Below are positions 24,599 to 48,594 of a stretch of DNA of 64,000 nt, piece after piece. Under the pieces are notes generated by a model that worked only from the letters and a program-made list of their open reading frames with translations, was not told the DNA's origin and made no database searches. This DNA comes from Planctomycetota bacterium (GTDB lineage Bacteria > Planctomycetota > UBA11346), in assembly GCA_038231435.1 (NCBI GenBank), contig JBBRLJ010000014.1, positions 50,010 through 114,009 on the forward strand. The letters run 5' to 3'. A program made the position numbers and the translations under genes. Each line of letters opens with the position of its first letter. Positions within the stretch are counted from its first letter, which is position 1.

Positions 24599-24839
24599 GA
24601 GGCCTTTCATAGCTGGCGCATGGTCACCGACCACGCCCATGGCGACCTTGGCACCCGAGGGTCTCACTGGCCGCAGATCGTACCGGCGCCCTCTTAGCGC
24701 GTTGGCACGTCCGTGTGTTGGGTCCCCTCGGGGAGGCAGATCTGTGGAGGAGGTGCGTGCTGTTCTGATGAACGCATGGACACGAGCGCCGCTGCTGATC
24801 TCTGCTGGCCGTCCGCTATCAGCTTCCCCTACCCTCCCC

Positions 24840-25457
24840 TCACGGAAATGGCCGCTCCTCCCTGCACCCTTCCAATTTCGCCGCGTATTCCGGATCGGTG
24901 ATCTCGAGCGCGCCAAAGCGCGCCATGTGCGGAGTCTGCTGCTGGCAATCCAGCATGCGGAAACCGTTCACACGCAGGCGCTCCACCAGGTGCACGACGC
25001 AGATCTTCGCCGCATCGTCGGCGCGGTGGAACATGCTCTCGCCGCAAAAGCACGCGCCTAGGCACAGGCCATAGATGCCGCCCACCAGCGCGCCGTCGGC
25101 ATTCCAGGCCTCGACCGAATGGGTGACGCCACGACGGTGGAGTTCAACGTAGAGCTTCTCGATGTCGCCGCAGATCCAGGTGCTGGTGCGTTCGGCGCAG
25201 GCTGCGATGACCTGCGGAAAGGCCTCGTCGATGGTGATGCGGTATGGCTGCTTCCGCATCACCTTGACCAGGCTCTCGGGCACCTTCCAGGTGTCCCAGG
25301 TGATGATCGCGCGGGTATGCGGCCGGTACCAGCGCAACCGGCCGCGACGATGGTCGGACATCGGGAAGCAGCGCTGCCAGTAGGCCTCGAGCACCAGCTC
25401 CGGGGTGACCGGATAGCCGTCCGCGTCCACGACGCGGGGGTCGCCCGCCGGGTTCAC
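24840..25457 (-). CDS. aat: Leucyl/phenylalanyl-tRNA--protein transferase
   Basis: AY....FPM, W..P..RA, AF.QVI.ACA, TWI, HSVEAW...LVGGIYG..LG..FCGESMFH, LDCQ..TPH. GTG start overlaps the upstream stop. Confidence 0.92.
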   Translation of the reverse strand: MNPAGDPRVVDADGYPVTPELVLEAYWQRCFPMSDHRRGRLRWYRPHTRAIITWDTWKVPESLVKVMRKQPYRITIDEAFPQVIAACAERTSTWICGDIEKLYVELHRRGVTHSVEAWNADGALVGGIYGLCLGACFCGESMFHRADDAAKICVVHLVERLRVNGFRMLDCQQQTPHMARFGALEITDPEYAAKLEGCREERPFP

Positions 25458-27848: not shown

Positions 27849-29264
27849 TCATTCGAGCAGCCGCCCGAGATGGGCACAGGCTTCCTCGGGCAGATTCGAG
27901 CTGCGCGTCAGGTGGAGACCTCCCCTCAGCCCTTCCTGCACGACCTGGCGCTCGAGGTAGTCGTTCGAGGTCGAATGCAGGGTGAGTCCGAAGATCGCGA
28001 AACGCAGGTCGGCGTCCGTTGGATCCCCGAGCTGGGAGAGCCGTACGCGCGCGGCCGCGACCAGGCCCATGGCCAGCGAATCCATCTGTGAGAATTCGCC
28101 CTCGAGGCCCTGGGCATTCAACGCCAGCTCGACCGCGACGCGCGCGCGGTAACCGCCGCGCATCAGGTGCGAGCCCGAGAGCATCTGCAAGTGCATCTCC
28201 TGGAGCTGGCGCAGCAGCAGGAAATCGTCGTTGTAGGTGGCGATGCTGACGCGCAGGCCCGCGAACGGCCAATTGGCCAAGAGTGGCGTGCGCCCATCGC
28301 AATAGAGGTAGACGTCCGCGAGCGAGGCCAGCGCGGCCACCGGCTGCACCAGGGCCGCGGCCCCGCGCTCGAGGTGACCGAGGATGCTCGGCGGCAGCAC
28401 CACGCGCACGCGGCGCCAGCGGCGGGTGGCCTCGGCGGCGATGCTGTAGGCGTTGGTGAGCACCTGCCAGGGATTCGAGCTGCCGTCGATGGTGGCGGTG
28501 AACTGACTGCCGCGCTTCGGGTCGTCGAGGCCATCGATCCACAGCCGGCCACGGCAGTACATCCGCACCACCGGCAGCGGGTAGCACTCGGCGAGCGACA
28601 GCTGCTCGAAGGTGCGCCGGCCGCAGCGCGTCAGGGCCTGCTGACCATCCGCAGCGCCGGCGAGGGCGGCGCGGGCCTCGGTACGATCGATGCGCAAAGG
28701 CGCGCGTTCGGCGGCCAGCGAGTGCATGCCGCAACGCACCAGGGCGGCATCGACCAGGCTGAGCACCAGCGGCGTGCCGACCTCGGTGATCGAGGTGTCG
28801 GACAGGAATGCCTCTACCTGCACCAGCGCATCGGTCGCGGCCTTGCGATCGAGCTGGTAGCGCTCGACCAGCAGGTCGCCCATCCACGAACGATCCCACT
28901 GGCGGCGGCGGCCATCGAGATCGATCACCGAGAGGTTGAGCGCGGCGCAGCCGTCGCCATTGACCCGGCGCTCGCGGCGGAAGCGCTCGCGGTCGTCGCG
29001 GTAGCGGATGTAGGATTTGGCCGCGTCGTAGTAGCCACTCTCCTGCAGCACGTGCACGACCGCGTCCTGCACCTCCTCGATGCCGAGGCTGGCCTGGTCG
29101 CAGGTGCGTTCGAGGTGCTCGAGCACCACGCGGGCCAGTTCGGCCGACAGAGCACGGTCATCGATGGAGACGGCGTGGAGCGCCTTCGAGATAGCCGAGC
29201 CGATGCGGGCCAGGTCGAACGCGACCTCGCGCCCATCGCGTTTGACGATGGCGGATGGCCTCAC
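27849..29264 (-). CDS. ATP-cone domain protein; degenerate, truncated class III RNR (NrdD)-like
   Basis: GGGAG RBS + GTG. ATP cone IVKRDGREVAFD..RI..AI.KA...IEEVQDAV..VL...Y..AKSYI.YR, a second cone-like segment (WDRSW...), then an NrdD-like stretch. No glycyl-radical motif or Zn ribbon. Confidence 0.7.
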   Translation of the reverse strand: MRPSAIVKRDGREVAFDLARIGSAISKALHAVSIDDRALSAELARVVLEHLERTCDQASLGIEEVQDAVVHVLQESGYYDAAKSYIRYRDDRERFRRERRVNGDGCAALNLSVIDLDGRRRQWDRSWMGDLLVERYQLDRKAATDALVQVEAFLSDTSITEVGTPLVLSLVDAALVRCGMHSLAAERAPLRIDRTEARAALAGAADGQQALTRCGRRTFEQLSLAECYPLPVVRMYCRGRLWIDGLDDPKRGSQFTATIDGSSNPWQVLTNAYSIAAEATRRWRRVRVVLPPSILGHLERGAAALVQPVAALASLADVYLYCDGRTPLLANWPFAGLRVSIATYNDDFLLLRQLQEMHLQMLSGSHLMRGGYRARVAVELALNAQGLEGEFSQMDSLAMGLVAAARVRLSQLGDPTDADLRFAIFGLTLHSTSNDYLERQVVQEGLRGGLHLTRSSNLPEEACAHLGRLLE

Positions 29265-29418
29265 GGCGGACTCCCGAGACCATGGCGCTCGAGCGGCGGG
29301 CGGATTGACGGGATGGCCATCGCGATGGGGATCCCTCTTAAAACGACGAGCGCGGGGGACCAGCTTTTTCCGGCTGGCGCCATAGGACGGTGGCACTGAG
29401 TGGCGATGCGCTGGCGCA

Positions 29419-30036
29419 TCACTCGATGCTCTTTTCCGGGCTCTTGTCCGGACTCTTGTCCAGACTCGTGTCCAGACTCGTGTCCAGAGCATGGCTTCCC
29501 GGGCTGCCGTGATCAGGCTCGCGGGACTGCGGACGCGCGGCGGGCAGGCCTGCGAGCGGCCCGCCCTTCTGTTGCGGACCGCCGCCGCCGATGACGCGGC
29601 GCAGTTCGCCCATGAACTCGTCGAGATCCTTGAACTGGCGGTAGACCGAAGCGAAACGGACGTAGGCCACCTGATCGAGCTTGTGCAGCTCGCCCATCAC
29701 CAGCTGGCCGATGTCGTTCGACGAGACCTCGCGGTCGCCTTGGCTGAGCAGGTGGTGGTGCACGCGGTTCGCGGCGGCCTCGAGATCCTCGGAAGCCACC
29801 GGGCGCTTCTCGCACGCGGTGATCATGCCCGCGAGCACCTTGCGGCGATCGAAGCTCTGGATGCGGCCATCCTTCTTCACCACCCGCAAGGCCTCTTCGC
29901 CTTCGACACGCTCGTAGGTCGTGTAGCGCTTGCCGCAAGGGTTGCAGACGCGCCGGCGCCGGATCGCGGTGCCGTCATCGGTGGCGCGCGAATCGATCAC
30001 GCGATCGTCGTCTTGATTGCAGAAGGGGCAGCGCAC
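29419..30036 (-). CDS. nrdR: Transcriptional repressor NrdR
   Basis: [32 protein letters not shown] cone [22 protein letters not shown]. Has a C-terminal extension. Confidence 0.97.
29429..29488 (+). repeat. Five-copy 12-bp tandem repeat in the nrdR 3' end
   Basis: ctcttttccggg ctcttgtccgga ctcttgtccaga ctcgtgtccaga ctcgtgtccaga, encoding [20 protein letters not shown]. Confidence 0.85.
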
Positions 30037-30146
30037 GGCGGTGGACCGGGGATCATGGAACGACCGCACCGAGCGCAAGGCGTGGCGTTCGACAAGCTTT
30101 CAACAGCTGCCGGACGAACGACCCACGGCAAGAACAGGCTTGGCGA

Positions 30147-31010
30147 TCAGGGATCCGCGCGTAACGACGAGGGCGTCCGGCCCATGATCCGCTTGAACGC
30201 CACGCTGAACGCGAAGGGATTCTCGTACCCGACGCTGCGGGCCACATCCTCGACGGTGGACCCGGTGGACGACAGCAATGCCGCGGCCCGGCGCATGCGC
30301 AGCAGGGCCACCTGGCGGAGCGGGCTGCGACCCAGATGCCGTTGGCATAGCCGCCTCAGGCGCTCCTCGCCCACGCCGACGCTGGCCGCGAGATCAGCGA
30401 GGGCCCACGGGCGCGCGAGATCGTTTTCGACCTCGCGCCACAGCGGCCACAGACGGGATCCATCCCCGGCCGCGGCCGTGGCGATGCGCATGGCCTGGGC
30501 GTGGACCAGGGCCGACCACTGAGTCAGGATCGATGGCTCGCCCGGGCCGACCGCTTCCTGCCACAGGCCATGGACCGCCGCGCGCAGCGGCTCGGCATCG
30601 GCCTCGACCACAGTGGCGGCGGTGAGTAGCGCGAACGCCTCTTGCGCCGAAGCCTTCGCCGAGGCGGACGTCGGTGGAACGTAGCTGGCCCAACAGATAC
30701 CCCAGCGCCGCGTGCCGATGGTGCGGAAACCGTGCGCCATTCCCGGAGGGGCCAGGTAAGCGCGCCCGGGGCCGAGCCGGACCCATGCACCGGCGACGAG
30801 GACCTCGCCGGAACCGGAAACGCAGGCGATGACATGGCCGAGCGGCGATGCGCGCTTGGAGAAGCCATAGCCCTTGCCGGCATCGCTGATGCCGGCGCGG
30901 CCGATGCCGAAGGCGGACAGCGCCGGCGCCGCCTCGGGGCCGACACGCCACTCGGGAGTGTCATCTCCCACCTGGTGGATCTCACGAATGCCGTGGTGGG
31001 TTGTAACCAT
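30147..31010 (-). CDS. AraC-family transcriptional regulator
   Basis: N-terminal cupin-like domain; C-terminal double HTH (W.LADLA...LRRL....GRSP; VEDVARSVGYENPFAFSVAFKR..G.TPS). Start 31010 or 31022. Confidence 0.9.
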   Translation of the reverse strand: MVTTHHGIREIHQVGDDTPEWRVGPEAAPALSAFGIGRAGISDAGKGYGFSKRASPLGHVIACVSGSGEVLVAGAWVRLGPGRAYLAPPGMAHGFRTIGTRRWGICWASYVPPTSASAKASAQEAFALLTAATVVEADAEPLRAAVHGLWQEAVGPGEPSILTQWSALVHAQAMRIATAAAGDGSRLWPLWREVENDLARPWALADLAASVGVGEERLRRLCQRHLGRSPLRQVALLRMRRAAALLSSTGSTVEDVARSVGYENPFAFSVAFKRIMGRTPSSLRADP

Positions 31011-31072
31011 GGTAATTCCCATGCCGTGGTACCTATGATCGAGGATACCACGAATCCATCGGGAGCCCACTC

Positions 31073-31933
31073 ATGAACGCACCAGACTTGCTCGCCACGG
31101 CGCCTGCGCGGCATTCCCGTCCTGCGTTCCAGACTACAGAAGCGGCCCTGAGTCCCGACCAGGTGGCGGCCTACCGACGCGACGGACTGCTCTTCCCCCT
31201 TCCGGTGTACGACCGATCCGCCATCGCTGCCAACCGCGCCGGATTCGAGCGGCTGCTGACCCGGCTGCCGCGCGGCGCCGACGCGTTCTCGATCAACGCC
31301 TGGCACCTCACCGACCGCTTCGTCTACGACCTCTGCACCAGTCCCCGGCTCCTGGACTACGTCGAGGCGCTGATCGGCCCGGACATCCTGCTGTGGGGCA
31401 GCCACTTCTTCTGCAAAGAGCCTGGAGACGGCAAGACCGTCGGCTGGCACCAGGACGCCCGCTATTGGCCGCTCGCCCCCCATCGCTCGGTTACGGCGTG
31501 GCTGGCGATCGACGACAGCGACGTGGGCAACGCCGCGATGCGCATCCTGCCCGGCACCCATGGCAACGGCCTGCTGCCGCACCAGCAGGGCGGCCAGCCG
31601 GACAGCCTCCTCGACCTGGCCCTCGACAGCGACGTGGTGCGCGGCCTCGCTCTCGATGACGCGCAGGCCACCGCGGTCGAACTGAAGGCGGGAGAGATCT
31701 CGCTGCACGATGACAATGTGATCCACGGCTCGCCAACGAACGCCTCACAGCGCCGGAGATGTGGTCTGACCATGCGCTTCATGCCACCCGAGGTGCGCTG
31801 CGACACGAGCGTGTGGCCTCATTTCAGCGCGATCGTGGTGAGGGGCGAGGACCGGGTGGGAGCGAATCGGCTGGCTCAGGCACCGAGAGAGGGGATGGAG
31901 TCGAGGGCGATCTTGGAGGGGCATCCGTATTAG
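31073..31933 (+). CDS. Phytanoyl-CoA dioxygenase (PhyH) family Fe(II)/2OG oxygenase
   Basis: FFCKEPG, WHQD (HxD), WLAIDD...N..M..LPGTH, IHGS..N.S..RR. Confidence 0.9.
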   Translation: MNAPDLLATAPARHSRPAFQTTEAALSPDQVAAYRRDGLLFPLPVYDRSAIAANRAGFERLLTRLPRGADAFSINAWHLTDRFVYDLCTSPRLLDYVEALIGPDILLWGSHFFCKEPGDGKTVGWHQDARYWPLAPHRSVTAWLAIDDSDVGNAAMRILPGTHGNGLLPHQQGGQPDSLLDLALDSDVVRGLALDDAQATAVELKAGEISLHDDNVIHGSPTNASQRRRCGLTMRFMPPEVRCDTSVWPHFSAIVVRGEDRVGANRLAQAPREGMESRAILEGHPY

Positions 31934-32313: not shown

Positions 32314-32745
32314 TCAAAGCCTCTCCGGTAGTCCCGCCCCCGTCCTCCCCGCCACCACCACCAACCCCCTCTCCATCAACATCTGCAGATACATCGTCAT
32401 CAGCACTCTCGCCTCATGGAACGACAGCCGGTGCTCCTGAGCCAGCCAATCGACCAGCGACTCCACCGTCGCCACGCCATCCACCTTCCGCCAGACCTCG
32501 AGTCCGAGTCCGTCCAGGCGGTAGGACTTGGTGCGCCGCAGCTTCAGCAGCGAGGCCAGCGGCCTGAGGACCGGGCCGTAGCTCAGCGGCACGGTGAGTG
32601 TCGCGGCATCCTGCAGTTCGACTGCCTCGACGCGCTGGTTGCGCACCGGGATGGCTGCGAGGCGCTCGGCGTATGAGAGATCAGCGGCCTTCGGCGCGCC
32701 ACGCTTCCTCGCCAGGATCGGGGGCGAGGGGTCAGCCGACGACAT
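32314..32745 (-). CDS. Stand-alone PqqD-family / RiPP recognition element (RRE) protein
   Basis: P.RN..V, then RTKSYRLDGLGLEVWRKVDGVATVESLVDWLAQEH.L...EA.....YLQMLMERGLV, typical of the PqqD winged-helix fold. Confidence 0.8.
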   Translation of the reverse strand: MSSADPSPPILARKRGAPKAADLSYAERLAAIPVRNQRVEAVELQDAATLTVPLSYGPVLRPLASLLKLRRTKSYRLDGLGLEVWRKVDGVATVESLVDWLAQEHRLSFHEARVLMTMYLQMLMERGLVVVAGRTGAGLPERL

Positions 32746-33629
32746 CGTCGGGCTCCAGGCGTGGATGCTTGGGTGGTCCCACCTGCTCGATCGCGTAGAT
32801 ACGGCCCTCTGTCGGATCGTGCCACATCCAGGCGTCGCCGGGCCACCAGGCGCCGGTGAGCATTTCCATCCGGCGTTCGCCACGGCGTTCGAAAGCCGTA
32901 CGCACGCCGCGCAGGCCACGGAACTCGACCGGTTGCGACGACATCACCCGCGAGCGCGCGCGGGAGAGCAGGCGACGATGCAGGCCCGCCAGGTCGAGCC
33001 CAGCGAGCACCGCGCGATCGAGGCCGATGCGGCGGGCAGTGAGATGCAGATCCTTAGCGGTCTCGAAGGTGATCGCCACGTTCGCCGGTTCGGGCGAGAT
33101 CGCCTCGAATGCGAAGGGCTCTGGCAGCTGGAGCGATACTCCGAACAGCTCGTGGCGCCTCGGCCAGGCGTGATTGGGGCGGAACGATTCCAGGAGCGGC
33201 AACAGGGTCGAGGCGGCGAACGCCTCGTCATGCTCGGGAAAGATCCACTGCAGCAGCGTGCGCGTAGAGTGCTGGTAGAGCGAGGCGTAGGCGGGCAGCC
33301 CGGGCCGGTGCCAGGCGAAGAGGAACTGCCCGACGACGCTGGTGCTCAACGCGGCGAAGACCGAGGCGTCCGCGGGCGCGGCCTTCGCCAGGAAGCGGCG
33401 ATGCACCTCGTCGAGGATGCGTGGCTGGTCCGGGGTCTGGGGCACGGTCCGCCACACCAGCTGGCCGCGCGGACGCACGCGCTCGTAGAACTGGAACTGG
33501 CCCTCATCGTTCGCGAAGTGATGGCCGGTGATCTCCCACCAGAGGGGCAGCGTGAACGAGAATCCCCGCCACGACAGCCTGCGGATGCGCTCGATGTACG
33601 GCGGCACGAGCGTCGCGCCTGCCGGCGGA

Positions 33630-33640
<11 letters not shown>
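32732..33640 (-). CDS. Hypothetical cytoplasmic protein of the membrane-transport operon
   Basis: Overlaps both neighbours. Two similar segments (SWRGFSFTLPLWW; ELFGVSLQLPEPF). GTG start tentative. Confidence 0.65.
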
Positions 33641-34466
<826 letters not shown>

Positions 34467-34471
34467 GTTGG

Positions 34472-36460
34472 TCAGTAGGGCAGCGAGGTGGTGGCCTTGG
34501 TCAGGAAGACGATGCCGATGCAGAACATGGTGACCAGGCCGACGCCGCAGAAGTATCCGGCGCTGAGCACCGGCACGTATTCGCGCCAGCGCAGACCCAG
34601 TTTCCTCTCGAAGTAGTAGCGGCCGACCAGCGCGCCGATGAACTGCGGTATCACCGAATGCGGATAGGTCTGGCCGATGCCGCGGATCAGGCCGTACAGC
34701 AACGTCACCGGGGCATTGAAGAACGACAGCACGCCGAACACCACCATGCCGACGATCAGCCCTGCCGTGACCTTCATGCCCGAGAGCGCTTCCTGGAACA
34801 CCGAGTATTCGCCGGTGGTCGACGACATCATCACCAACTGGTTCTTGGCGTTGAGTTCCCACATCTTCTGCGCGAACGGGTAGACTCCCGACGGGATCTC
34901 GGCGAGGCTCCAGATGAAGTTCGCAAACACCAGGTTGGCGATGATGATAACCGGGAAGAGCATCACCTCGGCCTTCCAGATCGAAGTGAACTTGGTGCCG
35001 GTCAGCTCAGCCTGACGATAGAAGACCGTCTGCACGCCGTAGTTGCTCATCGGCACTGGCAGGAACCACACCAGGATGCCGCCCTTGTAGCCCGAGAGGA
35101 TGAACGCCAGCTCGCGGATGAACGGGATCTCTATCACCTGGCCGGCGATGCCCTCGAGGCGTGCGGTGACGTAGCTGATGATCGGCGTGTAGAGGAAGCC
35201 GAAGAAGAACAGCACCACCATCACACCGGGATGCCAATCGATGAGGTAGCCGCATACGCCGATATAGATCAGGGTAGAGACCAAGTAGCACGCCATGACC
35301 CACGTATTGGGGATGTCGCCGCGGCCTGGCGGGGTCGAGATCTCGGCGCCGTGCGGAGCGGCCTCCATCGCGGCCTTGTCCTCCTTCGAGCGGCGCAGCT
35401 TGAGCACCGCCATGAAGCCGATGATCGCCACCGCCAGCGACAGCCCGATGCCGAAGCTGAAGTAGAAGTCGATCGAGTTCTTTAAGATGGTGTCGTTGGT
35501 GCCATCGCCCGGGGTCCACGAGGACAGGATGCCCGCGTGATAGAGCAGTGGATTCATGACCATGGTCGCGATCAGGCCGATGAACGATCCGACCATGGCG
35601 TAATACGGCATGACCATGCCCACGATGATCAGGCCGAGATCGAAGACCATGCCGGTCGCGACCGCCGGGAGGATGTCCTTGGTGTAGGTCGTCCAGTCCA
35701 CGAACGGAATCGGGAAGATGGTATACGGATTGCCGTGGAAGAAGGCACCGGTGAGCGTCGGCAGCCCCATATAGAGGATACCGAAGGCCATGCCCAAGGC
35801 CCCACCGATCGAGAATATGCGCCAGCGCCACGAACTCTCGGCCTTCTCCTTGCCCTCGAGGTCGTCGGACAGCGCGAGGATGCCCTGCGCGCCGATCGGG
35901 GCGAGCGGGAACGGCAGCTTCTCTATGTCGCTGGTCAACCGGAAGAGCCCGTAGCCCAGCACCGCGTTGTCGATCTTGCTGAAGAACTGTCGGAACAGCC
36001 ACAGGCCGAGCGCCGGCATCCAGGCCAGCTGGAAGAACGAGCGATGGTCGTAGACGGACGGATCCGTGGGGGCGAACCATTTCGGGAACAACGAGGTCAT
36101 GCCCTGCGAGGTGGCGGCGTCACTGCGGACCAGGAACTGGTTCCAGAGCAGGTTCCCATATACCGCCTGGCCCATGATCGAACCGGACATGTAGAAGAGC
36201 ACGAACAACTGCGGGCGCGAGAGCTTGGCGTTGGCGCGCTTGGCGATCTCGATGAAGAGGATGACCGTCACCCACTGCGCGGCCGAGCCCACGCCCATGC
36301 CAGCGAGCAGCTCCATGTACAGCGCGCCCGGCACCATCACCAGCGCGATGAACAGTACGCCGATGAACGACGACGTCGAGAAACCTTCGCCGAAGGTCGA
36401 CGGCACCGTCATCAGGTTGCGGTACTGCTCGAGCTCCTTGTCGATCTTGTGCTCAGCCAT
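34472..36460 (-). CDS. Polytopic membrane protein, OPT (oligopeptide transporter)-like
   Basis: Many TM helices; EKLPFPLAP motif resembling the OPT L.FP motif. ATG overlaps the upstream stop. Confidence 0.65.
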   Translation of the reverse strand: MAEHKIDKELEQYRNLMTVPSTFGEGFSTSSFIGVLFIALVMVPGALYMELLAGMGVGSAAQWVTVILFIEIAKRANAKLSRPQLFVLFYMSGSIMGQAVYGNLLWNQFLVRSDAATSQGMTSLFPKWFAPTDPSVYDHRSFFQLAWMPALGLWLFRQFFSKIDNAVLGYGLFRLTSDIEKLPFPLAPIGAQGILALSDDLEGKEKAESSWRWRIFSIGGALGMAFGILYMGLPTLTGAFFHGNPYTIFPIPFVDWTTYTKDILPAVATGMVFDLGLIIVGMVMPYYAMVGSFIGLIATMVMNPLLYHAGILSSWTPGDGTNDTILKNSIDFYFSFGIGLSLAVAIIGFMAVLKLRRSKEDKAAMEAAPHGAEISTPPGRGDIPNTWVMACYLVSTLIYIGVCGYLIDWHPGVMVVLFFFGFLYTPIISYVTARLEGIAGQVIEIPFIRELAFILSGYKGGILVWFLPVPMSNYGVQTVFYRQAELTGTKFTSIWKAEVMLFPVIIIANLVFANFIWSLAEIPSGVYPFAQKMWELNAKNQLVMMSSTTGEYSVFQEALSGMKVTAGLIVGMVVFGVLSFFNAPVTLLYGLIRGIGQTYPHSVIPQFIGALVGRYYFERKLGLRWREYVPVLSAGYFCGVGLVTMFCIGIVFLTKATTSLPY

Positions 36461-39400
36461 GGGCGGAGCCCCCTGTCTTAGCCAGGGCGAGGTCGCGGTC
36501 CGCCGAGACGGCGCGCTGCGCCAGCGCATGGTAATGCTCGACCGTGTCGAGCGGCAGCGAACGCCAGCGCAGGAACTGCTCGCGCAGATCGTCGATGAAC
36601 CCGCGATTACCGCGCATCCAGGTTCCGGGCGCTCCGTTGAGGCGCTTGAGTTCGACCACCACCTCGTCGATGCCCGGGATGTCCGAGGGCTGCGTGGTCA
36701 TGGTGAAGCGCTGGAAAACTCCGAGGTCGAACGGCGCGAGCGCCACCTCGGCGGTGATGCCCATGTTGCGGCCGCCGCCTGGACGGGCCTCGGAGACGAT
36801 GCTGATGTCGCGGGCGGAGAAGGCACCCAGCGAGGCGTCGCCATGGTTCTCGAAATGCTCGCGGATGAAGGCGAGGATGCCGGTGATGCTGTCGGCCGAG
36901 ACCGTGAACGGGAAGGTGAAGCGCAGCACATCGCCCTCGGGCTTTGGCATCTTCCACTTCCGCGCCACGCCCGGATTGGCCGAGCGACCGGCCATCAGCG
37001 CGGGATAGATGGTCGAGAGCATCACCGTGGCCATGACGATCAGGATGGTCGCGATCGACGAGAACGAGGAGAAGTTGATGTCGGGGACGTCCGCGAGGCC
37101 GAATGCGGACAGGACCGACAGCAGCTTGACCACCACCTGGCTGATCAGATAGCCACCCATGCCTCCGATCACGGCGAACACCGCGGATTCGGCGAAGAAC
37201 AGCGCGCCGACGTCGGGCGGGGCGAGGCCGAGCGCGCTGAAGGTGAAGATCTCCTTCTGGCGGTCGACGATCGAGCCCAGCAACGAGCTGAAGATGATCA
37301 GGCCACCGAGCAGCAGCGGCACCAGGACCTCCATGAAACCCGAACCCTCGATCGCCTGGGTGAAGAAGAAGCGCCTGGAACCCGAAGCGCTGGTCGCCAC
37401 CACCGGCCCGTCGATGTACTCGGCGAGTTCGCGGGCGTCGGCATCGACGTCGGCCCCCTCCTTCGGATAGAGCGTCACCAGGTTGGTGTATGACCCGAGC
37501 TTGCCCATTCCGGGAAATGTGGCGACCGCGACCAGGTCCGCGGAGCTGAAGATGAAATTATTCACATCGAGGCCGCGGAAGGTGTTCGCGAGGTTGTTGA
37601 AGCCGTCGGAGCGCGCGCCGTTGGCGGCGAAGGTGGCATCGAAGTTGGGCGGTACGATGCGCGTGCCGTCGATGTTCTCGATGTGCTTGAGCTTGACGCC
37701 CTCGAAGATCCCGGCCACGCGGAAGCGCTGGCCGCGGATGACGATGACATCCCCGACCGCGGCCGTGAGCTTGTCGGCGACGGTTCGCGGCAGCAGTAGC
37801 GGCGGGTCGCCGACGGTCGAAGCCACCGAATTCCCATCAGGCTGGGCGGCTGCCTGAGCCGCCAACGGCGCGAACATCGGATCCAGGCGCGGGACCTCGG
37901 CCGGATCGACCACCAGCACCGCCTCGAGCGCCTGCATCTGCTGGTTGCGCGGATTGCGTGCGATGTTCACCACGTCGTCGTGGAATTCGGACATGGTCGG
38001 ATCGCGGAACGACGCTCCACGCTCGCGCATCTCGTAGCGGTCCTGGAACAGCACGGCGATGGTGTCGCGCAGGCGATATGGGATCGAGAGGAACGACGGC
38101 GTATGGAATTCTATGCGCGCGTCGCCGTGAGCCGCGCCGAGATAGGTCTCCACCACCGCGAGCGACGAGCTGAACGATGCGAACACCAGGATGGTGAAGG
38201 TGAGCAGCGCCACGGTGGTCGCGGTGAGGAAGGTCTTCAGGGGCCGGTTGCGCATCCCCGAGATGCCGATGGCGACGGCGGCGAACGCGGTGCCGCCCTC
38301 GGCGGAACCGCCGTGCACCTTCGACGACAGCCCCTGCATCGCCCGCAGCTCGTGCTTGAACTTCGCCATGACCACGTGGATCACGAACGCGCTGAGTAGG
38401 ATGATGATGAACGCGAGGAAGATGATGATCGGCGCCTCGGCCAGCGCGAAGGCCGGATGGGTCTCGTAGAGGATGCCGAAGGTGGCGAGGAAGACGCCCA
38501 GGAAGCCGGCGATCTGCCGGTAAATCGAGGTGAAGCCGAACACCAGCCGCTCGACGGCGAAGGCGAAGGGCAGGCACAGGAGCAGCAGGATGATCACCGC
38601 CTGGACGAGGTCGTTGGCGTTGTCGCGTAGCGGCTGGTGCACCCGATGCCCGAGCATGTCGGCGATGGTCTCGTGGGCGGTGGCGAGCCGACTGTGGTTC
38701 TTGGCGCGGGCCTCGGCTGCCAGGTCGAGATGGTCCTCGGCGTCGGCCTGCAACTTCTCGAGCGGCTTGTTGATGATGTTGCGCGAACGCAGGGTCTTCA
38801 GGCGCTGCAGGTTGAGGTTCGCCAAGTCGTGGGACGCGACGCTGCTGGGATCGATCGACAGCATCGATCGGGGATCGAGCGGCAAGCCGATCCCCGCGGG
38901 GCTCTCGGGCGTGGTGCCGAACATGTCGATGCCGTTACCGAGATATTTGAAAGGCGCGCGCTGATCCTGGTAGAAGACCTCGAGATGGTTGAATCCTGCC
39001 GAGAACCGGTTCTTGGACTCGGTATCGCTGCGCGCGATGAGCAGGTGGCCGATGTTCGCGATGTTGTAATCCAGCGGCAGCAGGGGCGTGAAGAACCCGC
39101 CGCCGTATCCGTAGTGGAGCGAGGCGCGCGAGCCGCCCGACGAGCCGATGACGGTGAAGCGGTCGATGCCGCCGCTCGCGTCGAAGCCGAAGGCCCCCAC
39201 CCTGCCGTTGGTTCCGCCCCACGACATCTGCACGACGTTCGGGGCGAAGACGTGGCCCGTCGGGTCGACGGCAGACATCGCGAAATCGCATCCTCCGACG
39301 ATATAGCGCGGCTCGGCGCCGATCATCGCATTCGGGAAGCTACCCACATACATGATGGCATCGCTCGACGGTCCCTGGACGTCATCGCTGCCCTTGGCGG

Positions 39401-41424
39401 TATCCACCACCTCGAGTCCGGTGAGCTTGCCGTCGGCACCGGTGAGCACCAGCTGGGTAGTCATGTCCGCCGTCGGTATGTCGGTCGACGGCAGGTTGGG
39501 AGACGCCGCCAGCGCGGTGATGAAAGCCGTCAGCTGGGGCGAGAGCGCGAGCAGGTCGGCGTCGCGCCGCACCGGCATCTCGTCGGCATCCAGCGGATCG
39601 CCAACGGTCTGCAGCTGGAAGCCCGACACACCGAGCGAGAACGCTGCGGTCGATGGCACGCTGCGCTGATGTGGCGTGCACAGCGCGTCGAACCGGAAGG
39701 TGACGCTCTGGTCAGGTGTGTAGAGCTGCGCACGCTGCTGCTTGGGCAAGGACGCATACACTTCTTGATAGGCGCGCAGCTGCTTCGAGAAGGTTCCGGG
39801 CGTGACGTCTTTATGCCTCGAACAGCTGTCGGCGCCGAATGGAGAGAACATCCAGGTCTCGTCGCTCGAGGCGAAGTCGAAGGCGAAGTGCGCGGCGATG
39901 ACTTCCGGGATACCCGGATTGTCGACGGTGCCCGCCGGCTTGATCGCTGCCTCGAGTTCAAGGAACGAGCGGGTATGCCGCAGCAACGATTCGAAATACG
40001 CCTTCGACGCCCGTGAGGTCTGGGAGAGGTCGGCCAGGATCGAGGAGAAACCCTCGGCATCGGTGATGTTCTTGGCGGCGAGTTGGCCGCGCAGCTGGTT
40101 CCACAGCGTCTTCTTGTCGTTCAACTCCGCTTGACGCTGGAGCACAGACGTCAGCGTGGCGCGAACCTCGGCCAACCTGGCGGTGGCCGCGGCGGCCGCC
40201 TCGCCCGCCGCAGCGAGCTCGGTCTTTTCGAGATCCTTGATCTCGCGCTGGTATCCGAGCTCGTCGAGGGTGCACTGGCGCAGCTCGAAATTGATGTTGT
40301 TCACCAGACCCACGAGGTGGCGCTTCGCCTGCAGGTACAGCTCGACGGAATCCGCGTCGGTGCCGCTCACGAATCCAGGGCTCTCGAGCAGCGCGAGCCG
40401 GCGACCGAGGCGCGTCACCTGGTCCTGGCACAGGTCCTTCTCGCGGATGGCGAGACTGTCGGTGTCCTTGGCGTGCTCTGCCTTGTTGACCACGTAATAG
40501 AAATGGCGCGCGCCGTCCTGGGCCGCGTGGTGGCTGCCTAGGAAGAGCACGTAGACCGAACGGTCGAGGGGCGTACGCGCAAGCCGTCCAGCCACCTCGG
40601 CGAGCAGCGCGGCGTTGGCCGCCCAGCGCAGCTGCGGATCGAGATCGGGGATCGCGCCGAAGGTGTCGACGTTGGCAGAGAGCACCAGCGCCTTGGGATT
40701 GGCGACCGCGGCCCCGGCCTCCTGCTCCACTGGCTCGACGGCCTTGCCCTGGATCTTCGCCCACAGGTTCGTGGCGACGACCCGCTCCCAGCGCACCGAC
40801 AGGTCGAGCGATGCCTGGATGCTGCCATCCGCGGTGAGCAGGCCCGCCGCCTGCGCGGCCGGACGATCTATCCACACTCGGGGGAGCGAGACTGGCAGCG
40901 TGGTGAAGTGCGATTCGATGTTCCACTGATTCGCCTGGTCATTGCCGACGAACACCACCGCGCGCGCGCCTTGGCTGAACACCTCGGCGAGATGCGTGCT
41001 GCCGAACTCCATCACCGCGATGGCGCCGGCGATGGGCTTGCCGTCGAGAGCCTCGAGCGAGCCGTCACCGACATAGAGCAGCGGGCCGGTCGCCGGGGAG
41101 CCCCAGGTGGTCGCCGGCGCGACGCCGTTGGGCGCCAACGGCAACACCGGACCCACCTCATGGCCATCGATGGTCAGGCGGCAGACCTTGGTCACCGGCA
41201 CCAGGGTATCGTAGGTCTGGCGGTGGACGGCGAGGCCGGCCCCCGCCAGGGCCTTCTCGATCGCATCGAGCGAAGCCGTGTACCCAGCGCTCCCGGGCAG
41301 GCGCTGGTCATGGCTCGAGAGCTCGCGCATCACCGCCGCGTACGCCGCGCCTTCGGCGGCGGAATCTGCGGCGGAGAGCCGCGCCGCGCCGATCAGCAGC
41401 GCGAGCGCAAAGCAGGCGAACGCC

Positions 41425-41432
<8 letters not shown>
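36453..41432 (-). CDS. 1659-aa FtsX-like ABC permease with an N-terminal M28 peptidase/PA-like ectodomain
   Basis: Signal peptide; RLPGSAG, PA-like GPLLYVGDG..GAIAVMEF..GARAVVF, TNLWAKI, ALLAEVA..RSVYVLF; FtsX motifs ISGMRNRPLKTFLT and SIVDRQKEIFTFSALGLAP..V..LFFAE, STIYPA. Confidence 0.8.
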
Positions 41433-42200
<768 letters not shown>

Positions 42201-42204
<4 letters not shown>

Positions 42205-43766
42205 TCGACCCTCATCGCATCCATCGGCGCCATCCGCGAAGCCGACCACGACGGATAGATCGAGGCCAGGGTTGAGAGCGCCACGCCGGTGCCGACGCAG
42301 ATCAACCCGCACTGCATAACCGAGACAACCGGGAAGTACGAGAATAGGTAGACACCGTAGATCAGTGAGCACTTGATCAGTGCCAGGACCAGCCCGATGG
42401 CGGTCCCGACCAGCCCGCCCGAGAACCCCTGTACCGACGCTTCCATGAGGAATTGTTGGAGGATGAAGCCATCGGTCGCGCCCAGGCACTTCATCGTCGC
42501 GATCTCGCGGAAACGCTCGGTGATGGCCATGAGCATGGCGTTGGTGATGCCGACCATGCAGACCACGAACGATATCGCCATGAGGAACGCCTGCCGGCCG
42601 CTGATGAGTCCCTGGCCCGACTGGCCCGGCGGCTGGCGCTCGACCACCGCCTTCTCGACCAGGAGCAAACGGTTCTCCTCAGCGACGTCCCGTGAGATCT
42701 CACTCAGCTGCTGCGGTGTCCACGTTCCTCCGAGGATGGTGGCGACCCGCTGGTCGTCGAGCACGAGCATCTTCTTGTCGATCAGGGGATCCTCGAGGAA
42801 CGCCTTGTGCCAGGCGGCATGGCACTCGTCGGTCGACAACCGGTCGCGAACCTCGTTTCGCCGCTTCGCCCTGGCCAGCCCATCATGCACCAGTCGCACC
42901 TGGTCCGGAGTGTCGGCGAAGCCATGGGCGGCCAAGCATGCCTGGAACGATATGAGGAAGGCCGCCTCGCCCTGCGCGAGCGCGTCGGCCATGCGCCGCC
43001 TGAACGCCTCGACCGAGGCATCGGCCGAGGCTTGGGCGAGGACCGGCGGGGAATGTCCGGCACCGCCAGCATCGGCGTCCGGCGCCGCCGCACGGTCGAT
43101 GGGAGCGAGATCGTCTCGCAGGCGTGCTACCGCCGTCCGCCACGACTGCGTGAGTCCGGCGAGCCGTTCGACATAGCCCAGGTGCCCATCTGCCGAGGCC
43201 TTCAGTTCATTCAGCGGCATGGGCGGCTTGAGCGCGTGCAGCTGCGCCAGTTCGGCGTCGAATCCCGTCCATCGGCTGGCATCGGCGAGATACGCGAAGA
43301 TCTCGGCGCCCTTCGATTTGCGCACCAGGATGGCGCGGCTGCCGGCGTCCATGCCATCGAAGAACGCCATGACCCGGGACTCGCGACGGCTCTCGGCAGC
43401 GAGCGCGCGCACCTGCTCGAGCTGGGCTCCGCTGACGGCGGCGATCTCGCCCAGCGCGAGCGGGCGACCGTCCGCGGCGACGAGGCGCGCGGCCATGCCG
43501 ATCTGGTCGACGTCCGAGACCCACACGGCGAGGCGCTGCGAGGCGAACCGGCGCGCGGCGTTCTCGACGGCGACGCCGCCTCCGACGGATTTGGTGAATG
43601 CGCTCTCGCAGAGCAGCACCATGAAGAACGCCACGGCCAGGACGATCACTGTCAGGGTGAGCAGCGAGCGGAACAGGCGGTGCGCGATGCCCTTGAGGCA
43701 CAACGCGAACGCCTTCCCGAGCGGGATCTTGTGTTGCTGGCGGACATCGATGATGGGAGCGTTCAT
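42201..43766 (-). CDS. FtsX/LolE-type ABC permease
   Basis: HRLFRSLLT + TM, a large helical ectodomain, then GITNAMLMAITERFREIATMKCLGA..FLME and YPSWSASRMAPMDAMRVE. Confidence 0.88.
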
Positions 43767-43770
43767 GATG

Positions 43771-45981
43771 TCAGCCGGGAAAGATGCCGGTGTTCTTCGG
43801 GATGAGGCCGGTGTTCATGTAATAGCAGAAGCCGACCAGCAGGATCATCGCCACGGCGATGATCTCACCCATGATCAGGCCGATGAACAGGGGCTTGAGC
43901 GACTGGTAGGTCTTCCCGCCGCCGAAGCGCACGATCAGCTCCTTGGTGACCCAGCCGAGAAAGAACGAGAACCACACCAGGCTCGACGTCCACGTGCCCC
44001 ACATCAGGAAGATGACGGGGTGCAGCGGCCACCACCCGAAACGGAATCGCATCACGGACATCATGATGGTCCCGAGAATGCCGAATCCGATCCATCCGAG
44101 CTTGGGGCCATGGCCCACGTTGTTCGCCAATTGACCGAGCTTGGCGAGTCCGTGCGTCGACTCCGAGCTCGCGAACTGGCCAGTCTCGTGCAGCACCGCG
44201 AGCCCGGCGGTGGCGATGCTCAGCTTGTTCTCGGGCAGATGCAGCGCGTAATCGTCATTGTGCGCGCCCTTGTTGTACACGCTGTAGGTCTGGGAGACGA
44301 AGCCGATCGCGAAGGCGACCAGGGTCGCGAGCGCTCCGACCATGATGATGCGCGGCAGGCGAATACCCACGTTCTCGGAGATCTTCAGTGTGTTGGCCAC
44401 GTATGGCGTGACGCACTCGCGGGCATCGGGGTTGAGCACCAGGCCCATGTACATCACCATGACCCAAGATGTCGGGCCAAGCGCCGGCACCCCGAGCGTC
44501 AGGCTCAGCATGTAGCCGATATCGAAGTTCGCCTGAAGGAACGGGATGCCGGTCTCTGCTACGATGCGAGCGAACACCAAGAAGTAGATCATCAGCGACA
44601 TCGCGAAGATAAGCGCGATGAACCAATCCATGTCGAAGACCAGCACCAGCATGCTCACGAGACCCGCGAAGGCGCCGAGGAATATGCGCGCCGCCCAGAT
44701 CGGCTGGCGATCCACCGAAGTGGAACCACGTAGTCCCAGGGCCTTGGCGAGGACGTTCAGGTAATAGTGCCTGCCGGTATACAGCAGGATCAGGAAGTAC
44801 GCGCCATACGCGCCTGCGAGGACGCATGACTTGTCGTCGTCTGACACCGTGGTTCCGGTAGCGAGGAAGAATTGCGCGCCCACGATGGTCACAGCGATGG
44901 TCGACAGACTCATGCTCAGGCTGATCTCGGATGCGATGAAGTACGAGAAGCCGATGATCATGAAGGTGATCCGCTGGTCGCATACCACCCACGCGCCCAC
45001 ATTGTTGAGCACCGGAAATACACCGACGATATCCCAGGCTCCCCACTGCAGCGGGATGCGCGGCAGGTAGTTGGGGAACCAGGCTTGCAGGTAGTTGATC
45101 AGGTGGATCGCGAACACCGGAGCGAATCCAGCCCAGAACAGGCGCGAGTAGAAGAGGTCCGACGTCAGCCGCGACCCCGTCCGCTCGATCAGCGCGGTCG
45201 ACACCGACGCCATCGGGTAGCTCAGCTGCTCGTGGTGCGCCCACTGGCGATGCACCAGGAAGATCATGGCGATCAGCGCGGTCGCCATCAGCAGCGCGAG
45301 CGGAGTCCAATATACCATCGTCGGCAGCCATTCGCGCAGCGGCGCCTGGGACAACTTGAGGCTCTCGTCGCCTTCCGGAATCCCACGCGTGAAGCTGCCG
45401 TACACCCGTTCGTACGCCTTTCGCACCGCGAGCGTCTCGGCCGTCCCCGGCGCGTGCTTCGTCGGATCCGTTCCCGGATCGTGCCTGAGCGGGTACACCT
45501 GGTCGGGCAGGAAGGACAGGGTCTTGTTGGCCTGCCACTCCGGATGACTGGCCTCGTTCGTCCATGGCATGATCACCGAGTAGTGGAAATAGCGGTAGAA
45601 ACTCGAGCCCGGCAACCAGCTGCAGATCAGCATCATGCCGAGCACCACCGCGAGCTCACGGGTGCCGAAGCGCAGGCGGGACCACAGACGTCCGATGAGA
45701 GGATTCCACACCGTGGCCAGGAGCAGGATCAGCGTGAAGGCGCCGATCGGCATGTGGTTGCCGACCAGCGGCGAGAGCTTCAGGACGCGGTCGTTGGTGT
45801 TCGAGTAGAGGCTGATGATCGCCACGCCGATCAGCCCAAAGAGAACCGCCTTGAGGGTGATGCCCGGGCCACCCGGAGCCGCTACGGCCGGGGAACCTGG
45901 TGCAGGCGCCATGGGCGAGTCCGGTGGGACCGTCGCGGGAACGGGCGCCGGCTCGGCGGGGGATGATTCGGATCCGGCCAT
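43771..45981 (-). CDS. Polytopic membrane protein, DUF6785/DUF6784-like
   Basis: RQW..HEQLSYP, IIGFSYFI..EISLS, RIVAETG.PF, RFGWWPLHPV, ..RFGG...Y...KPLFIGLI.GE. Confidence 0.75.
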   Translation of the reverse strand: MAGSESSPAEPAPVPATVPPDSPMAPAPGSPAVAAPGGPGITLKAVLFGLIGVAIISLYSNTNDRVLKLSPLVGNHMPIGAFTLILLLATVWNPLIGRLWSRLRFGTRELAVVLGMMLICSWLPGSSFYRYFHYSVIMPWTNEASHPEWQANKTLSFLPDQVYPLRHDPGTDPTKHAPGTAETLAVRKAYERVYGSFTRGIPEGDESLKLSQAPLREWLPTMVYWTPLALLMATALIAMIFLVHRQWAHHEQLSYPMASVSTALIERTGSRLTSDLFYSRLFWAGFAPVFAIHLINYLQAWFPNYLPRIPLQWGAWDIVGVFPVLNNVGAWVVCDQRITFMIIGFSYFIASEISLSMSLSTIAVTIVGAQFFLATGTTVSDDDKSCVLAGAYGAYFLILLYTGRHYYLNVLAKALGLRGSTSVDRQPIWAARIFLGAFAGLVSMLVLVFDMDWFIALIFAMSLMIYFLVFARIVAETGIPFLQANFDIGYMLSLTLGVPALGPTSWVMVMYMGLVLNPDARECVTPYVANTLKISENVGIRLPRIIMVGALATLVAFAIGFVSQTYSVYNKGAHNDDYALHLPENKLSIATAGLAVLHETGQFASSESTHGLAKLGQLANNVGHGPKLGWIGFGILGTIMMSVMRFRFGWWPLHPVIFLMWGTWTSSLVWFSFFLGWVTKELIVRFGGGKTYQSLKPLFIGLIMGEIIAVAMILLVGFCYYMNTGLIPKNTGIFPG

Positions 45982-46274: not shown

Positions 46275-48389
46275 TCAACCACCGGTGAAGCCGGTGTAGC
46301 CGGGGGCGCCGGTTATCAGCCAATGGAGGAATGCCCCCACCGTGAGCAGGGCGCCGCACATGATCTCTCCCAGGATCAGGCCGAGGAACAGCGGCTTACA
46401 GGTCCGGTAGCCGCTGGCGCCCCCGAAGCGCACGATCGACTCCTTCAGGCACCACCCGAGCAGGAAGGAAAACCACAGGAACTTGCACGGCCAGGTATCC
46501 CAGATCAGGAAGATGATCGGGTGCAGCCAGAAGCCGGGGTAGCGGAAGCGCACCAGCACCAGGGCCAGCACCCCGGCCATGCCGAATCCCATCCACGACA
46601 GCTGCTTCCCGTGACCGACGTTCTCGCCGAGCAGGCCGAGCTTCGCCAAGCCGTGGGCCGCCGACGAGGAATCGAAGCGGCCCGTGTCCGCCAGGGTACC
46701 CAATCCGCGCGTCGCCTGGTCGATGGTCGAGGGCAATGTCGATTCCAGGACGTGGAAATTGTCGCGCTTGCCCCCGTAGGCGTAGGTGGTGTAGGTCTGG
46801 GCCGCGAAACCGAGCACCGCCGCGAGCGCCATAGCGCCGAGCCCGGCGGCGACCAGGCCGCCGACCCGCGTGCCGGTGTTCTCAGCGACCTTGAGCCCAT
46901 TGGCGACGAACGGCATCATGCACACACGGGTGTCGAAGTTGATCACGCTGCCGAGCCAGTAGATCATCACCAGGCACGACGGGCCGAGCGCGGGGAAACC
47001 CATGATGTTCGCCAGCACCATGCCCGAGTCGAACTCGGCCTGCATGAACGGCACGCCGGTCTCGCAGATGATGCGCGTGACGACCAGGAAGAACATCTGT
47101 ACCGCCAGCACGTACACCACCGCGATCATCCAATCGAGTCCGAACCCCCACCACAACACCAGGGTCAGGCCCGCGGACGCGGCCAAGAAAACTCGCGCCG
47201 CCCATACACCCTGGTTGTCGCCCTCATCGCTCGCGCGCCGCGCGCGCAAGGCCCGCGCCATCATCGAACGGTAATAGGTTCGTCCGGTATAGACCAGGAT
47301 GAGCGCGTACGCGACATAGGCTCCGGCCACGATGCTCTTGCAGTCGACGTTGCTCATCGGCTTGCCGGTAGCCGCGTAGACCTGGACCGAGACCAGCGCG
47401 AACCACAGCAGGTTGGTGCCGAAACTGAAACTGATCTCGGACGGGATGAAATAGGCGATGCCGATGATCATGAACTGCGTCCAGCCACGCAGGTTCAGGT
47501 CGACGTTCTTCAGCACCGGGAATAGCTGACTGAAATCGTCGCCGACGTAGAACGCCGACGAGATCCACGGGAACTTGCCGTGCGTGAGGATGGCCAGGTA
47601 GTTGATCAGGTAGAATATGAACGGCGGCGCCGCGCCCATCCAGAACAGCCGCGATCGGAACACCTCCGGGATGCGGCCATCCGCCTTCGGGATCATGGCG
47701 CTGAACACCGTCGCCAACGGATAGGCCAGCTGCTCGTGGCGCGACCACTGGCGATGCACGAGCAGTGCCAGCGCGGACATCGACAGCGCAAGGCAGCCGA
47801 TCAGCGGTCCCCAGTACGCCATGATCGGCAGCCAGGCGCGCCATGGCGCCTGGGCCACGCTCAGCACGCCGTCGCCGACCGGGATGCCGGTCTCGAAATC
47901 ACCGTACACCTTCTGGTAGGACGGGTCTGCCTGATCGTGGGCGAGCGGGAACAGCCGGGATGGCAGATATTCGAGGGTCTGGCGCGCGATCCAATCGGCA
48001 TGGGCGGGCTCGGCGAGCCACGGCCGGATCAGGTAGACATGGAAGGTGCGGTAGAAGCCGTAGCCCGGGAGCCAGGCCGCGCACAGCATCATCACCAGCA
48101 CCACGGTCAACTCGCCCGGTTCCAACCGCAGCCGCGACCACAGCCGACCGGCGAGCGGATTCCAGACCAGAGCGAGCACGATGATGGCCGCCATCGGGAA
48201 GATCGGCAGATGATTGCCGACCATTGGTGGCGCCTGCACCGTGTTGTTGGTGAAGTCCGCGAGCAGCGAGATGGTGGCCACGCCCAGCGCGCCTAGAGCC
48301 ACCGATCGCCAGGTCACCGAACGGGCGCGCGCGGACGCGGCCGGTGGCGGCTGGTCCGGGATGCCGTCGGGGATCTGCGTGGTCGCCAT
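46275..48389 (-). CDS. Second DUF6785/DUF6784-like polytopic membrane protein (tandem paralog)
   Basis: Collinear with 43771-45981 (VGNHLP, HRQWSRHEQLAYP, RIICETGVPF, HPIIFL, VRFGG..YR..KPLFLGLILGE). Confidence 0.78.
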   Translation of the reverse strand: MATTQIPDGIPDQPPPAASARARSVTWRSVALGALGVATISLLADFTNNTVQAPPMVGNHLPIFPMAAIIVLALVWNPLAGRLWSRLRLEPGELTVVLVMMLCAAWLPGYGFYRTFHVYLIRPWLAEPAHADWIARQTLEYLPSRLFPLAHDQADPSYQKVYGDFETGIPVGDGVLSVAQAPWRAWLPIMAYWGPLIGCLALSMSALALLVHRQWSRHEQLAYPLATVFSAMIPKADGRIPEVFRSRLFWMGAAPPFIFYLINYLAILTHGKFPWISSAFYVGDDFSQLFPVLKNVDLNLRGWTQFMIIGIAYFIPSEISFSFGTNLLWFALVSVQVYAATGKPMSNVDCKSIVAGAYVAYALILVYTGRTYYRSMMARALRARRASDEGDNQGVWAARVFLAASAGLTLVLWWGFGLDWMIAVVYVLAVQMFFLVVTRIICETGVPFMQAEFDSGMVLANIMGFPALGPSCLVMIYWLGSVINFDTRVCMMPFVANGLKVAENTGTRVGGLVAAGLGAMALAAVLGFAAQTYTTYAYGGKRDNFHVLESTLPSTIDQATRGLGTLADTGRFDSSSAAHGLAKLGLLGENVGHGKQLSWMGFGMAGVLALVLVRFRYPGFWLHPIIFLIWDTWPCKFLWFSFLLGWCLKESIVRFGGASGYRTCKPLFLGLILGEIMCGALLTVGAFLHWLITGAPGYTGFTGG

Positions 48390-48594
48390 GCCGCGGACAG
48401 CAGATGTCGCCGCGCCGCCGCGCAATCTCCGAACCGGGCCGTACCTGATCCCCGGCTCATCTCACCTGGAGCTCATGTGATCCCGGATGAGCAGATGTGA
48501 TCCTGCACGCGGTGTCCGCGGCCATCTCCGGCGTTGCGGCCACTCATCGCTGCACTGGCACCGACGACCGTGGGCTGACCGCTATTGGCGATGC

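Follow-up and report, generated by a model that had tools for sequence, protein, structure and literature searches.

What does a peptidase-like domain do on an FtsX-type permease? The question is raised by a gene in a 64,000-nucleotide stretch of a Planctomycetota bacterium (contig JBBRLJ010000014.1 of assembly GCA_038231435.1, positions 50,010 to 114,009), which we call the window in its full length. The product of this gene, P0001, had been read in a preliminary description of the sequence as a probably inactive M28 peptidase fused to a permease and serving as the substrate-binding module of an ATP-binding cassette (ABC) complex. We find that the head of P0001 has an M28 fold and has lost its metal site, and that its gene travels with a set of neighbours that includes an OPT/YSL-fold membrane protein, in genomes where the apparently OPT-related DUF6785/6784 proteins multiply. 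P0001 might thus be part of a motor shared by several carriers, a reading that we weigh against four others below.

The P0001 gene is single-copy in the window's genome, and its open reading frame (ORF), for 1659 residues, has no internal stops. Every motif quoted in the preliminary description was located in the translation (RLPGS at residue 44, TNLWAKI at 221, SANVD at 252, ALLAEVA at 275, RSVYVLF at 291, GSHHAAQDG at 299, LGYQREIKDLEK at 392, QAELNDKK at 434, RKWKMPKPEG at 1491 and FDLGVFQ at 1568), in a frame that is both intact and conserved. Because P0001 has 222 homologues at E<=1e-3, the best 119 of which share 38-61% identity with it, the observation is not due to chance. A profile of the ectodomain reached further: 1715 representatives matched it at E<=1e-3, of which 482 also passed E<=1e-30. 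The parts of the protein are as follows.

36453..41432, minus strand: core protein P0001, M28-like ectodomain plus MacB/FtsX (type VII ABC) permease module (homology, Pfam, AlphaFold model)
41364..41432, minus strand: predicted signal peptide, residues 1-23 (hydropathy; cleavage site inferred)
40752..41228, minus strand: PA domain and two linker strands, residues ~69-227, inserted in the M28 domain (model secondary structure; alignment to 2EK8 and YwaD)
40473..40751, minus strand: middle part of the M28 core, residues 228-320, with N254, W270, H301 and H302 and the conserved R269 and N273 (alignments)
39918..40472, minus strand: four-helix insertion within the M28 domain, residues ~321-505, lineage-restricted (model; clade spacing)
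39480..39917, minus strand: C-terminal part of the M28 core, residues 506-651, with D519, D617 and E618 (alignments, structural match)
38613..39479, minus strand: beta-rich domain, residues ~652-860, and three-helix bundle, ~861-940 (model secondary structure)
38364..38612, minus strand: three family-specific, strongly conserved transmembrane helices, residues ~941-1023 (hydropathy, conservation; count inferred)
36981..38363, minus strand: MacB/FtsX module, residues ~1024-1484 (Pfam FtsX and MacB_PCD; matches to YtrF, LolC and MacB)
36456..36980, minus strand: conserved soluble C-terminal domain, residues ~1485-1659, predicted cytoplasmic (conservation)

An M28 head without its metal site

An AlphaFold2 model of residues 24-945, built on a 64-sequence alignment, reached a predicted local distance difference test score (pLDDT) of 93.8 and a predicted template modelling score (pTM) of 0.93. 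Foldseek matched it to the M28 aminopeptidase 2EK8 at E 5e-17, with 2EK8, BSAP, PaAP, transferrin receptor 1 (TfR1) and GCPII in the top ranks, and a wider structural search superposed it on the Aeromonas aminopeptidase (AAP; 1RTQ) with Z 22.8 and a root-mean-square deviation of 3.0 Å over 252 aligned residues; glutaminyl cyclases (Z ~21-22) and GPAA1 (Z 18.2) followed. A family profile of 115 sequences led to the same enzymes in the PDB (2EK8, E 5.7e-10; YwaD, E 1.5e-6). The model confirms for the ectodomain the M28+PA layout of an alpha/beta zinc-exopeptidase that had been proposed from motifs. The end of this domain, placed earlier near residue 330, has to be moved: structural matches cover model residues 1-623, and the M28 domain therefore reaches about residue 650. 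Inserted in it are the PA domain and, further on, a segment of four helices.

The active site is very probably not that of a classical peptidase. Alignments to 2EK8, YwaD and AAP, and between clades, place the six catalytic positions of P0001 at N254 (first His ligand), W270 (bridging Asp), H301 (general base), H302 (Glu ligand), D519 and E618 (last His ligand, next to D617, which is invariant in the close clade described below). The ligands were thus mapped by sequence and profile alignment, with D519 assigned from its strand position and the alignment to nicalin. Only D519 is retained of the five zinc ligands, and H301 replaces the general-base Glu; the suspicion that SANVD and GSHHAAQDG stand where the first zinc ligand and the ExE segment should be is borne out by N254, H301 and H302. 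We recovered the first active-site segment from 262 of 268 full-length members (260 unique). His occupies position 254 in 18 of these; Asp occurs at 270 in 27, whereas Glu is seen 14 times at 301 and once at 302. No member has more than two of the four canonical residues, and the EE pair is absent from all 260 unique segments.

The loss is shared across the family. In a tree of 314 C-terminal modules, 310 of which were counted (four being unassigned), we distinguished a close clade, with 127 members and a support of 0.66; a group of 85 whose support is poor (0.26); and 98 outer members. Taken together, the close clade and the group of 85 have a support of 0.99. None of the 310 relatives has more than three of the six canonical catalytic residues. 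As aligned, this decay is not random: a His at the general base persists in 103/127 close and 80/98 outer members, and the Asp ligand in 121/127 and 79/98 respectively, with Asp at the last-His position in 79/98 outer members. The same His/Asp/Asp remnant was also scored in 133 members, giving 120, 123 and 119. The group of 85 is mostly devoid of these pocket residues (His in 9, Asp ligand in 14) yet retains the gene set. Of the five metal ligands four are replaced, as is the general base, and the sampled relatives include none with a complete site. The pseudo-peptidase claim thus stands, and the alignments indicate that the head is very probably not a classical peptidase. A caution against certainty comes from PDB 2ANP, whose title describes a functional Glu151His mutant of AAP.

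The four-helix insertion had been taken for a coiled coil following the N-terminal domain. The helical stretch is there, but it lies inside the M28 domain, and its heptad enrichment is only modest, so we call it a helical stalk and not a proven coiled coil. Its helices, of 22, 48, 42 and 39 residues in the model, reach ~60-70 Å. The spacing across the stalk site is at least 158 residues in all 211 measurable inner-group members (medians 194 and 207), but it falls below 50 in 63 of the 88 outer members that could be measured. This makes the stalk a derived feature. Hydrophobic segments at the stalk site in nine outer members suggest that it faces the membrane. In the small FtsX permease encoded in the same operon, the distance from the first helix to the FtsX domain is ~330-450 residues in 41/41 inner loci and 65-198 in 9/13 outer loci; this lengthening and the gain of the stalk may be a single shared event.

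Some relatives depart further from this layout. A probable transmembrane segment takes the place of the stalk in L100, L107, L114, L119, L093, L094, L108 and L109. Core homologues at L095:4599-12932 and L097:6697-15048 have frames of ~2780 residues with ~1000 extra N-terminal residues, and one in G412:C3 has an open frame of 3902. Two others (P0353 and P0357, one labelled Poribacteria) carry LysM domains in the ectodomain.

The permease module, its operon and the OPT-fold partner

The whole of P0001 matches only two Pfam families, FtsX (residues 1370-1483, E 9.5e-11, 42 bits against a cut-off of 25.5) and, weakly and under the cut-off, MacB_PCD (E 7.6e-4), a match that is precomputed on many relatives. 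Its membrane part finds YtrF (E 1.4e-5), LolC and MacB among PDB sequences. The module appears to run from an amphipathic helix through one transmembrane helix and a periplasmic core domain to three transmembrane helices with a coupling helix. The two transmembrane blocks of the preliminary description are hence refined: this part is best read as three extra helices followed by a MacB/FtsX module that would comprise four helices and a periplasmic domain of its own. The soluble C-terminal domain noted there is present and conserved; hydropathy and MacB homology suggest a topology that leaves it in the cytoplasm, and it gave no usable match in PDB sequences, Pfam or the Atlas.

P0001 is the fifth of nine co-directional genes, which are, around it and in order of transcription:

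46275..48425, minus strand: DUF6785+DUF6784 membrane protein, copy a, OPT-related (Pfam, hhalign)
43771..45981, minus strand: DUF6785+DUF6784 membrane protein, copy b, which shares 46% identity with copy a (Pfam, hhalign)
42201..43766, minus strand: small FtsX-type permease, 521 residues (family matches)
41425..42204, minus strand: ABC ATPase A, with Walker A, signature, Walker B and H-loop intact (Pfam, motif check)
34472..36460, minus strand: fixed partner, an OPT/YSL-fold membrane protein of ~662 residues, longest ORF to 36529 (Pfam in relatives, model, adjacency)
33630..34466, minus strand: ABC ATPase B, motifs intact, 54% identical to A (Pfam, motif check)
32732..33760, minus strand: conserved operon protein of no assigned family, its start uncertain (gene context)
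32314..32745, minus strand: PqqD-like (RRE-type) small protein, longest ORF to 32919 (Pfam PqqD, E 7e-8)

The small FtsX protein is likely the second membrane subunit of the ABC unit. The PqqD-like protein also matches the NCBIfam lasso PqqD family, under its cut-off (E 4e-5), and fewer than half of the distant loci have a PqqD match close to the core.

The most constant neighbour of the core is the 662-residue membrane protein. It follows the core in 40/40 distant loci and in 42/58 close loci; of the other 16, 13 end in or just past the core, and L042 shows 1 kb downstream of the core without it. Its model (pLDDT 88.2) has a sole structural match, barley YS1 (7WSR; TM-scores 0.65/0.71, E 2.6e-10), at 12% identity. 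A second comparison with YS1 gave Z 21.6 and a root-mean-square deviation of 4.1 Å over 547 residues, the next fold scoring Z 4.0, so that as modelled the partner carries the whole OPT/YSL core-plus-scaffold fold. Pfam OPT does not match the window's own copy; among 57 relatives, 19 match it at E<=0.1, the strongest at 1.1e-10. The partner also aligns with DUF6785 by hhalign (probability 84.6, E 6.8e-6, 143 columns), and PDB profile searches with either gave nothing meaningful. At L094:13302-15308, the partner of the only core of genome G328 is split over two overlapping frames, by a frameshift or an assembly error.

Distribution of the core and of DUF6785 genes

Relatives of P0001 carry source labels that include Planctomycetota, Lentisphaeria, Kiritimatiellia, Armatimonadota, Latescibacteria and Poribacteria. 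Caution is needed with two further labels, that of L001 (Polyangiales, 60% identical to P0001) and that of P0334 (Bathyarchaeia, starting with unrelated sequence), and a 71% archaeal cluster in the Atlas gives no more than a lead.

We searched 702 genomes, 401 of the window's phylum and 301 of a second one, scoring two to four candidates in each; the genomes are mostly incomplete, and kin among them are not independent. In the window's phylum the core is present in 68/401 genomes and DUF6785 in 65, all among those 68, with none in the 333 core-negative genomes. The second phylum has a full-length core match (E<1e-130) in 44/301 genomes, and the same 44 have strong DUF6785 matches; two further genomes have weak ones near 2e-7. 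We set aside 101 genomes of this phylum with weak core matches (E 1e-15 to 1e-19), which, where listed, cover the FtsX part only. The core thus occurs in about one sixth of the sampled genomes of two phyla.

Within genomes, copy numbers part ways. In the five that were fully scored, the counts of core, OPT partner and DUF6785 were 3/3/18, 4/4/11, 1/1/8, 1/1/7 and 3/3/6 (split matches merged): core and partner stay 1:1 while DUF6785 multiplies at solo loci, an expansion seen only in core-holding genomes. Solo paralogues of one genome have a median identity of 23-40%, and at 40 loci picked away from the core we found no core, partner or small FtsX gene within ~4 kb, and a close ATPase at one. 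The window's genome, with one core, has a third, solo DUF6785+6784 gene (L129:9458-11647; G000:C1, ~16.5-18.6 kb) that is 41-44% identical to the operon copies and adjoins GH42, GH92, a GntR/LacI-type regulator and an F5/8C-domain protein. Many operon-linked DUF6785 genes elsewhere (e.g. in G374:C13, G162:C96 and G401:C18) encode 800-1160 residues, with a large insertion at profile positions ~125-135, and PhyH genes recur beside the solo copies of G374.

Other genes of the window flank the operon or lie further off. Directly upstream, at 48595-50271, is a DnaB helicase in which ~150 residues separate the N-terminal match from the C-terminal domain; directly downstream, at 30147-31933, are a divergent AraC regulator and a PhyH-family dioxygenase. 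NrdR and a 547-residue ORF with an ATP-cone and a long familyless part occupy 27849-30078, and three co-directional ORFs (1340, 763 and 358 residues) with no Pfam family save a weak DUF5060 occupy 17529-24916.

Candidate machines and known systems

The reading that we favour, with confidence somewhat short of even, is that of a type VII ABC motor with a dead nicalin-like head that is shared by OPT-fold subunits, which can be exchanged. P0001 would likely serve as both scaffold and motor subunit in a complex of the inner membrane, where ATP would drive or reset uptake via the OPT-fold subunits, and together with the small FtsX protein and the two ATPases it would form a LolCDE-like heterodimeric type VII unit. 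Its three extra helices may grip the fixed OPT-fold protein, which could pair with one DUF6785 paralogue at a time, because OPT/YSL proteins are dimeric. The paralogues would then set specificity, as S-components do on a shared ECF module, and the elevator would be powered or reset by ATP-driven motion and not by passage through the FtsX helices. The dead head might act as a non-proteolytic lid or docking surface, as in nicalin, nicastrin or the transferrin receptor, with a remnant His/Asp/acid pocket that may bind a ligand in some clades.

Several facts weigh against this proposal. Operon linkage and kinship partly account for the co-occurrence of core and DUF6785; the five counted genomes were picked for their many candidates, and three reached via loci have one DUF6785 each. 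Solo DUF6785 genes have neighbours of both catabolic and housekeeping kinds (122 of the 243 adjoining ORFs were scanned, no control), and the OPT fold of DUF6785 is assigned solely from profile similarity. The partner is missing at L033 and L044, which extend at least 4 kb downstream of the core. ATPase and small FtsX genes each lie near the core in just 20/40 distant loci (stretches of at most 19.5 kb, some ended by contig ends), and the ABC unit may therefore be optional or encoded elsewhere. Finally, YS1 is proton-driven and needs no ATPase, having been described as a dimeric (homodimer) proton-coupled elevator in PMC9691689.

Next comes an extension of the preliminary description, in which the dead head is a specificity receptor whose old active site binds a peptide or solute and hands it to the membrane part. 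The remnant His/Asp/Asp pattern of most close and outer members and the presence of TfR1 among the structural matches are consistent with it. Type VII permeases, however, typically pass no substrate, the group of 85 has mostly lost the pocket and kept the gene set, and up to eight DUF6785 paralogues occur with a single core, as if specificity lay elsewhere. The preliminary description is thus supported as to the pseudo-peptidase, while the receptor role is one that we consider unlikely. Better candidates than a dead head for carrying and selecting substrate are the OPT/YSL-fold partner, which is near-invariant, and the DUF6785 paralogues with their growing numbers.

The nicalin-containing BOS complex has a role in membrane-protein assembly and quality control. 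By analogy, P0001 could insert, extract or license OPT-fold proteins, and the DUF6785 proteins would be its clients instead of exchangeable subunits. Nicalin is the best non-peptidase sequence match and has the same loop length past the HxD position, GPAA1 is among the structural matches, type VII systems extract things from membranes according to PMC12646458, and the dependence of DUF6785 on the core is explained equally well. The fixed 1:1 OPT-fold neighbour is left unexplained, though, and active aminopeptidases outscore nicalin. Neither nicalin nor nicastrin appears in the first 50 structural matches to the ectodomain model (an absence that does not exclude them). We regard this third explanation as improbable.

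Fourth, and with a lower probability again, the head could be a remodelled enzyme, with His301, Asp519 and Glu618 forming a one-metal or metal-free site that acts on a PqqD-delivered peptide during export and maturation. The conserved remnant pattern, the same fold in single-zinc glutaminyl cyclases, the AAP Glu-to-His mutant titled 'functional' and the PqqD-like gene of the operon all fit. That mutant, by its title, changes one residue, whereas in P0001 the two His ligands, the Glu ligand and the bridging Asp are replaced as well; moreover, the group of 85 lacks the pattern, and only a minority of distant loci have a PqqD match by the core. A fused analogue of FtsEX-EnvC, with the stalk passing ATP-driven motion to a periplasmic cell-wall hydrolase, would suit long helices in a type VII permease and the LysM domains of two relatives, but is very improbable given that most measurable outer members lack the stalk, that nine carry a hydrophobic segment there, that a Pfam scan of the operon shows no hydrolase, LytM activator or amidase, and that three OPT-related genes go unexplained.

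The P0001 system is real; it is a variant among the type VII ABC systems and might be an importer of a new class. Whether it is a new class of primary active importer in the full sense (type VII motor plus OPT/YSL elevator, shared core, scattered exchangeable DUF6785 specificity subunits and a prokaryotic nicalin/nicastrin-like cap) we rate as doubtful. If true, ATP would be coupled to uptake in a new way, joining a type VII motor, of a kind described as acting outside the membrane, with OPT/YSL carriers, described as proton-driven, and DUF6785/6784, with up to 18 copies per genome, would gain a role. The literature that we searched, with supplements and most subscription journals outside its coverage, holds no description of the system; an OPT family survey (PMC3061005) has no such gene context in its accessible part, the corresponding parts of PMC2678158 and PMC12646458 hold no apparent description of it, and system-related terms are absent from PMC5898192.

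Type VII ABC proteins perform mechanical work, typically without substrate passage, and it is a partner that determines their function (PMC12646458). With MacB, LolCDE, FtsEX-EnvC, YbbAP-TesA and YtrEF, P0001 shares the FtsX C-terminal helices and a putative MacB-like periplasmic domain, and its operon has two intact ATPases. What sets it apart are the dead-peptidase head of 920 residues, the three extra helices, the C-terminal domain, which is novel, and the OPT-fold partners; we found none of these for type VII systems in the literature searched. The group II energy-coupling factor (ECF) transporters, in which several S-components compete for one motor (PMC10368641), follow the same genomic logic of one ATPase-linked core and dispersed membrane paralogues that occur only with it; this is an analogy only, as no membrane folds are common to both, the subunits here being of FtsX and OPT type and not EcfT and S-component.

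From the M28+PA aminopeptidases (2EK8, YwaD/BSAP, PaAP, GCPII) and AAP, with which it shares the fold and PA insertion, P0001 differs by its single remaining ligand, its His general base, a 185-residue insertion and its fusion to a membrane part. A profile of the outer group matches 2EK8 (7e-24), nicalin (2.4e-9), TfR1 (1e-4) and nicastrin (5e-3). The ectodomains of nicalin, nicastrin, TfR1 and GPAA1 have non-catalytic roles, and they likewise present an M28 fold on a membrane anchor, whereas P0001 is prokaryotic and fused to an ABC permease. It could thus serve as a bacterial model for the dead M28 ectodomains of eukaryotic membrane complexes.

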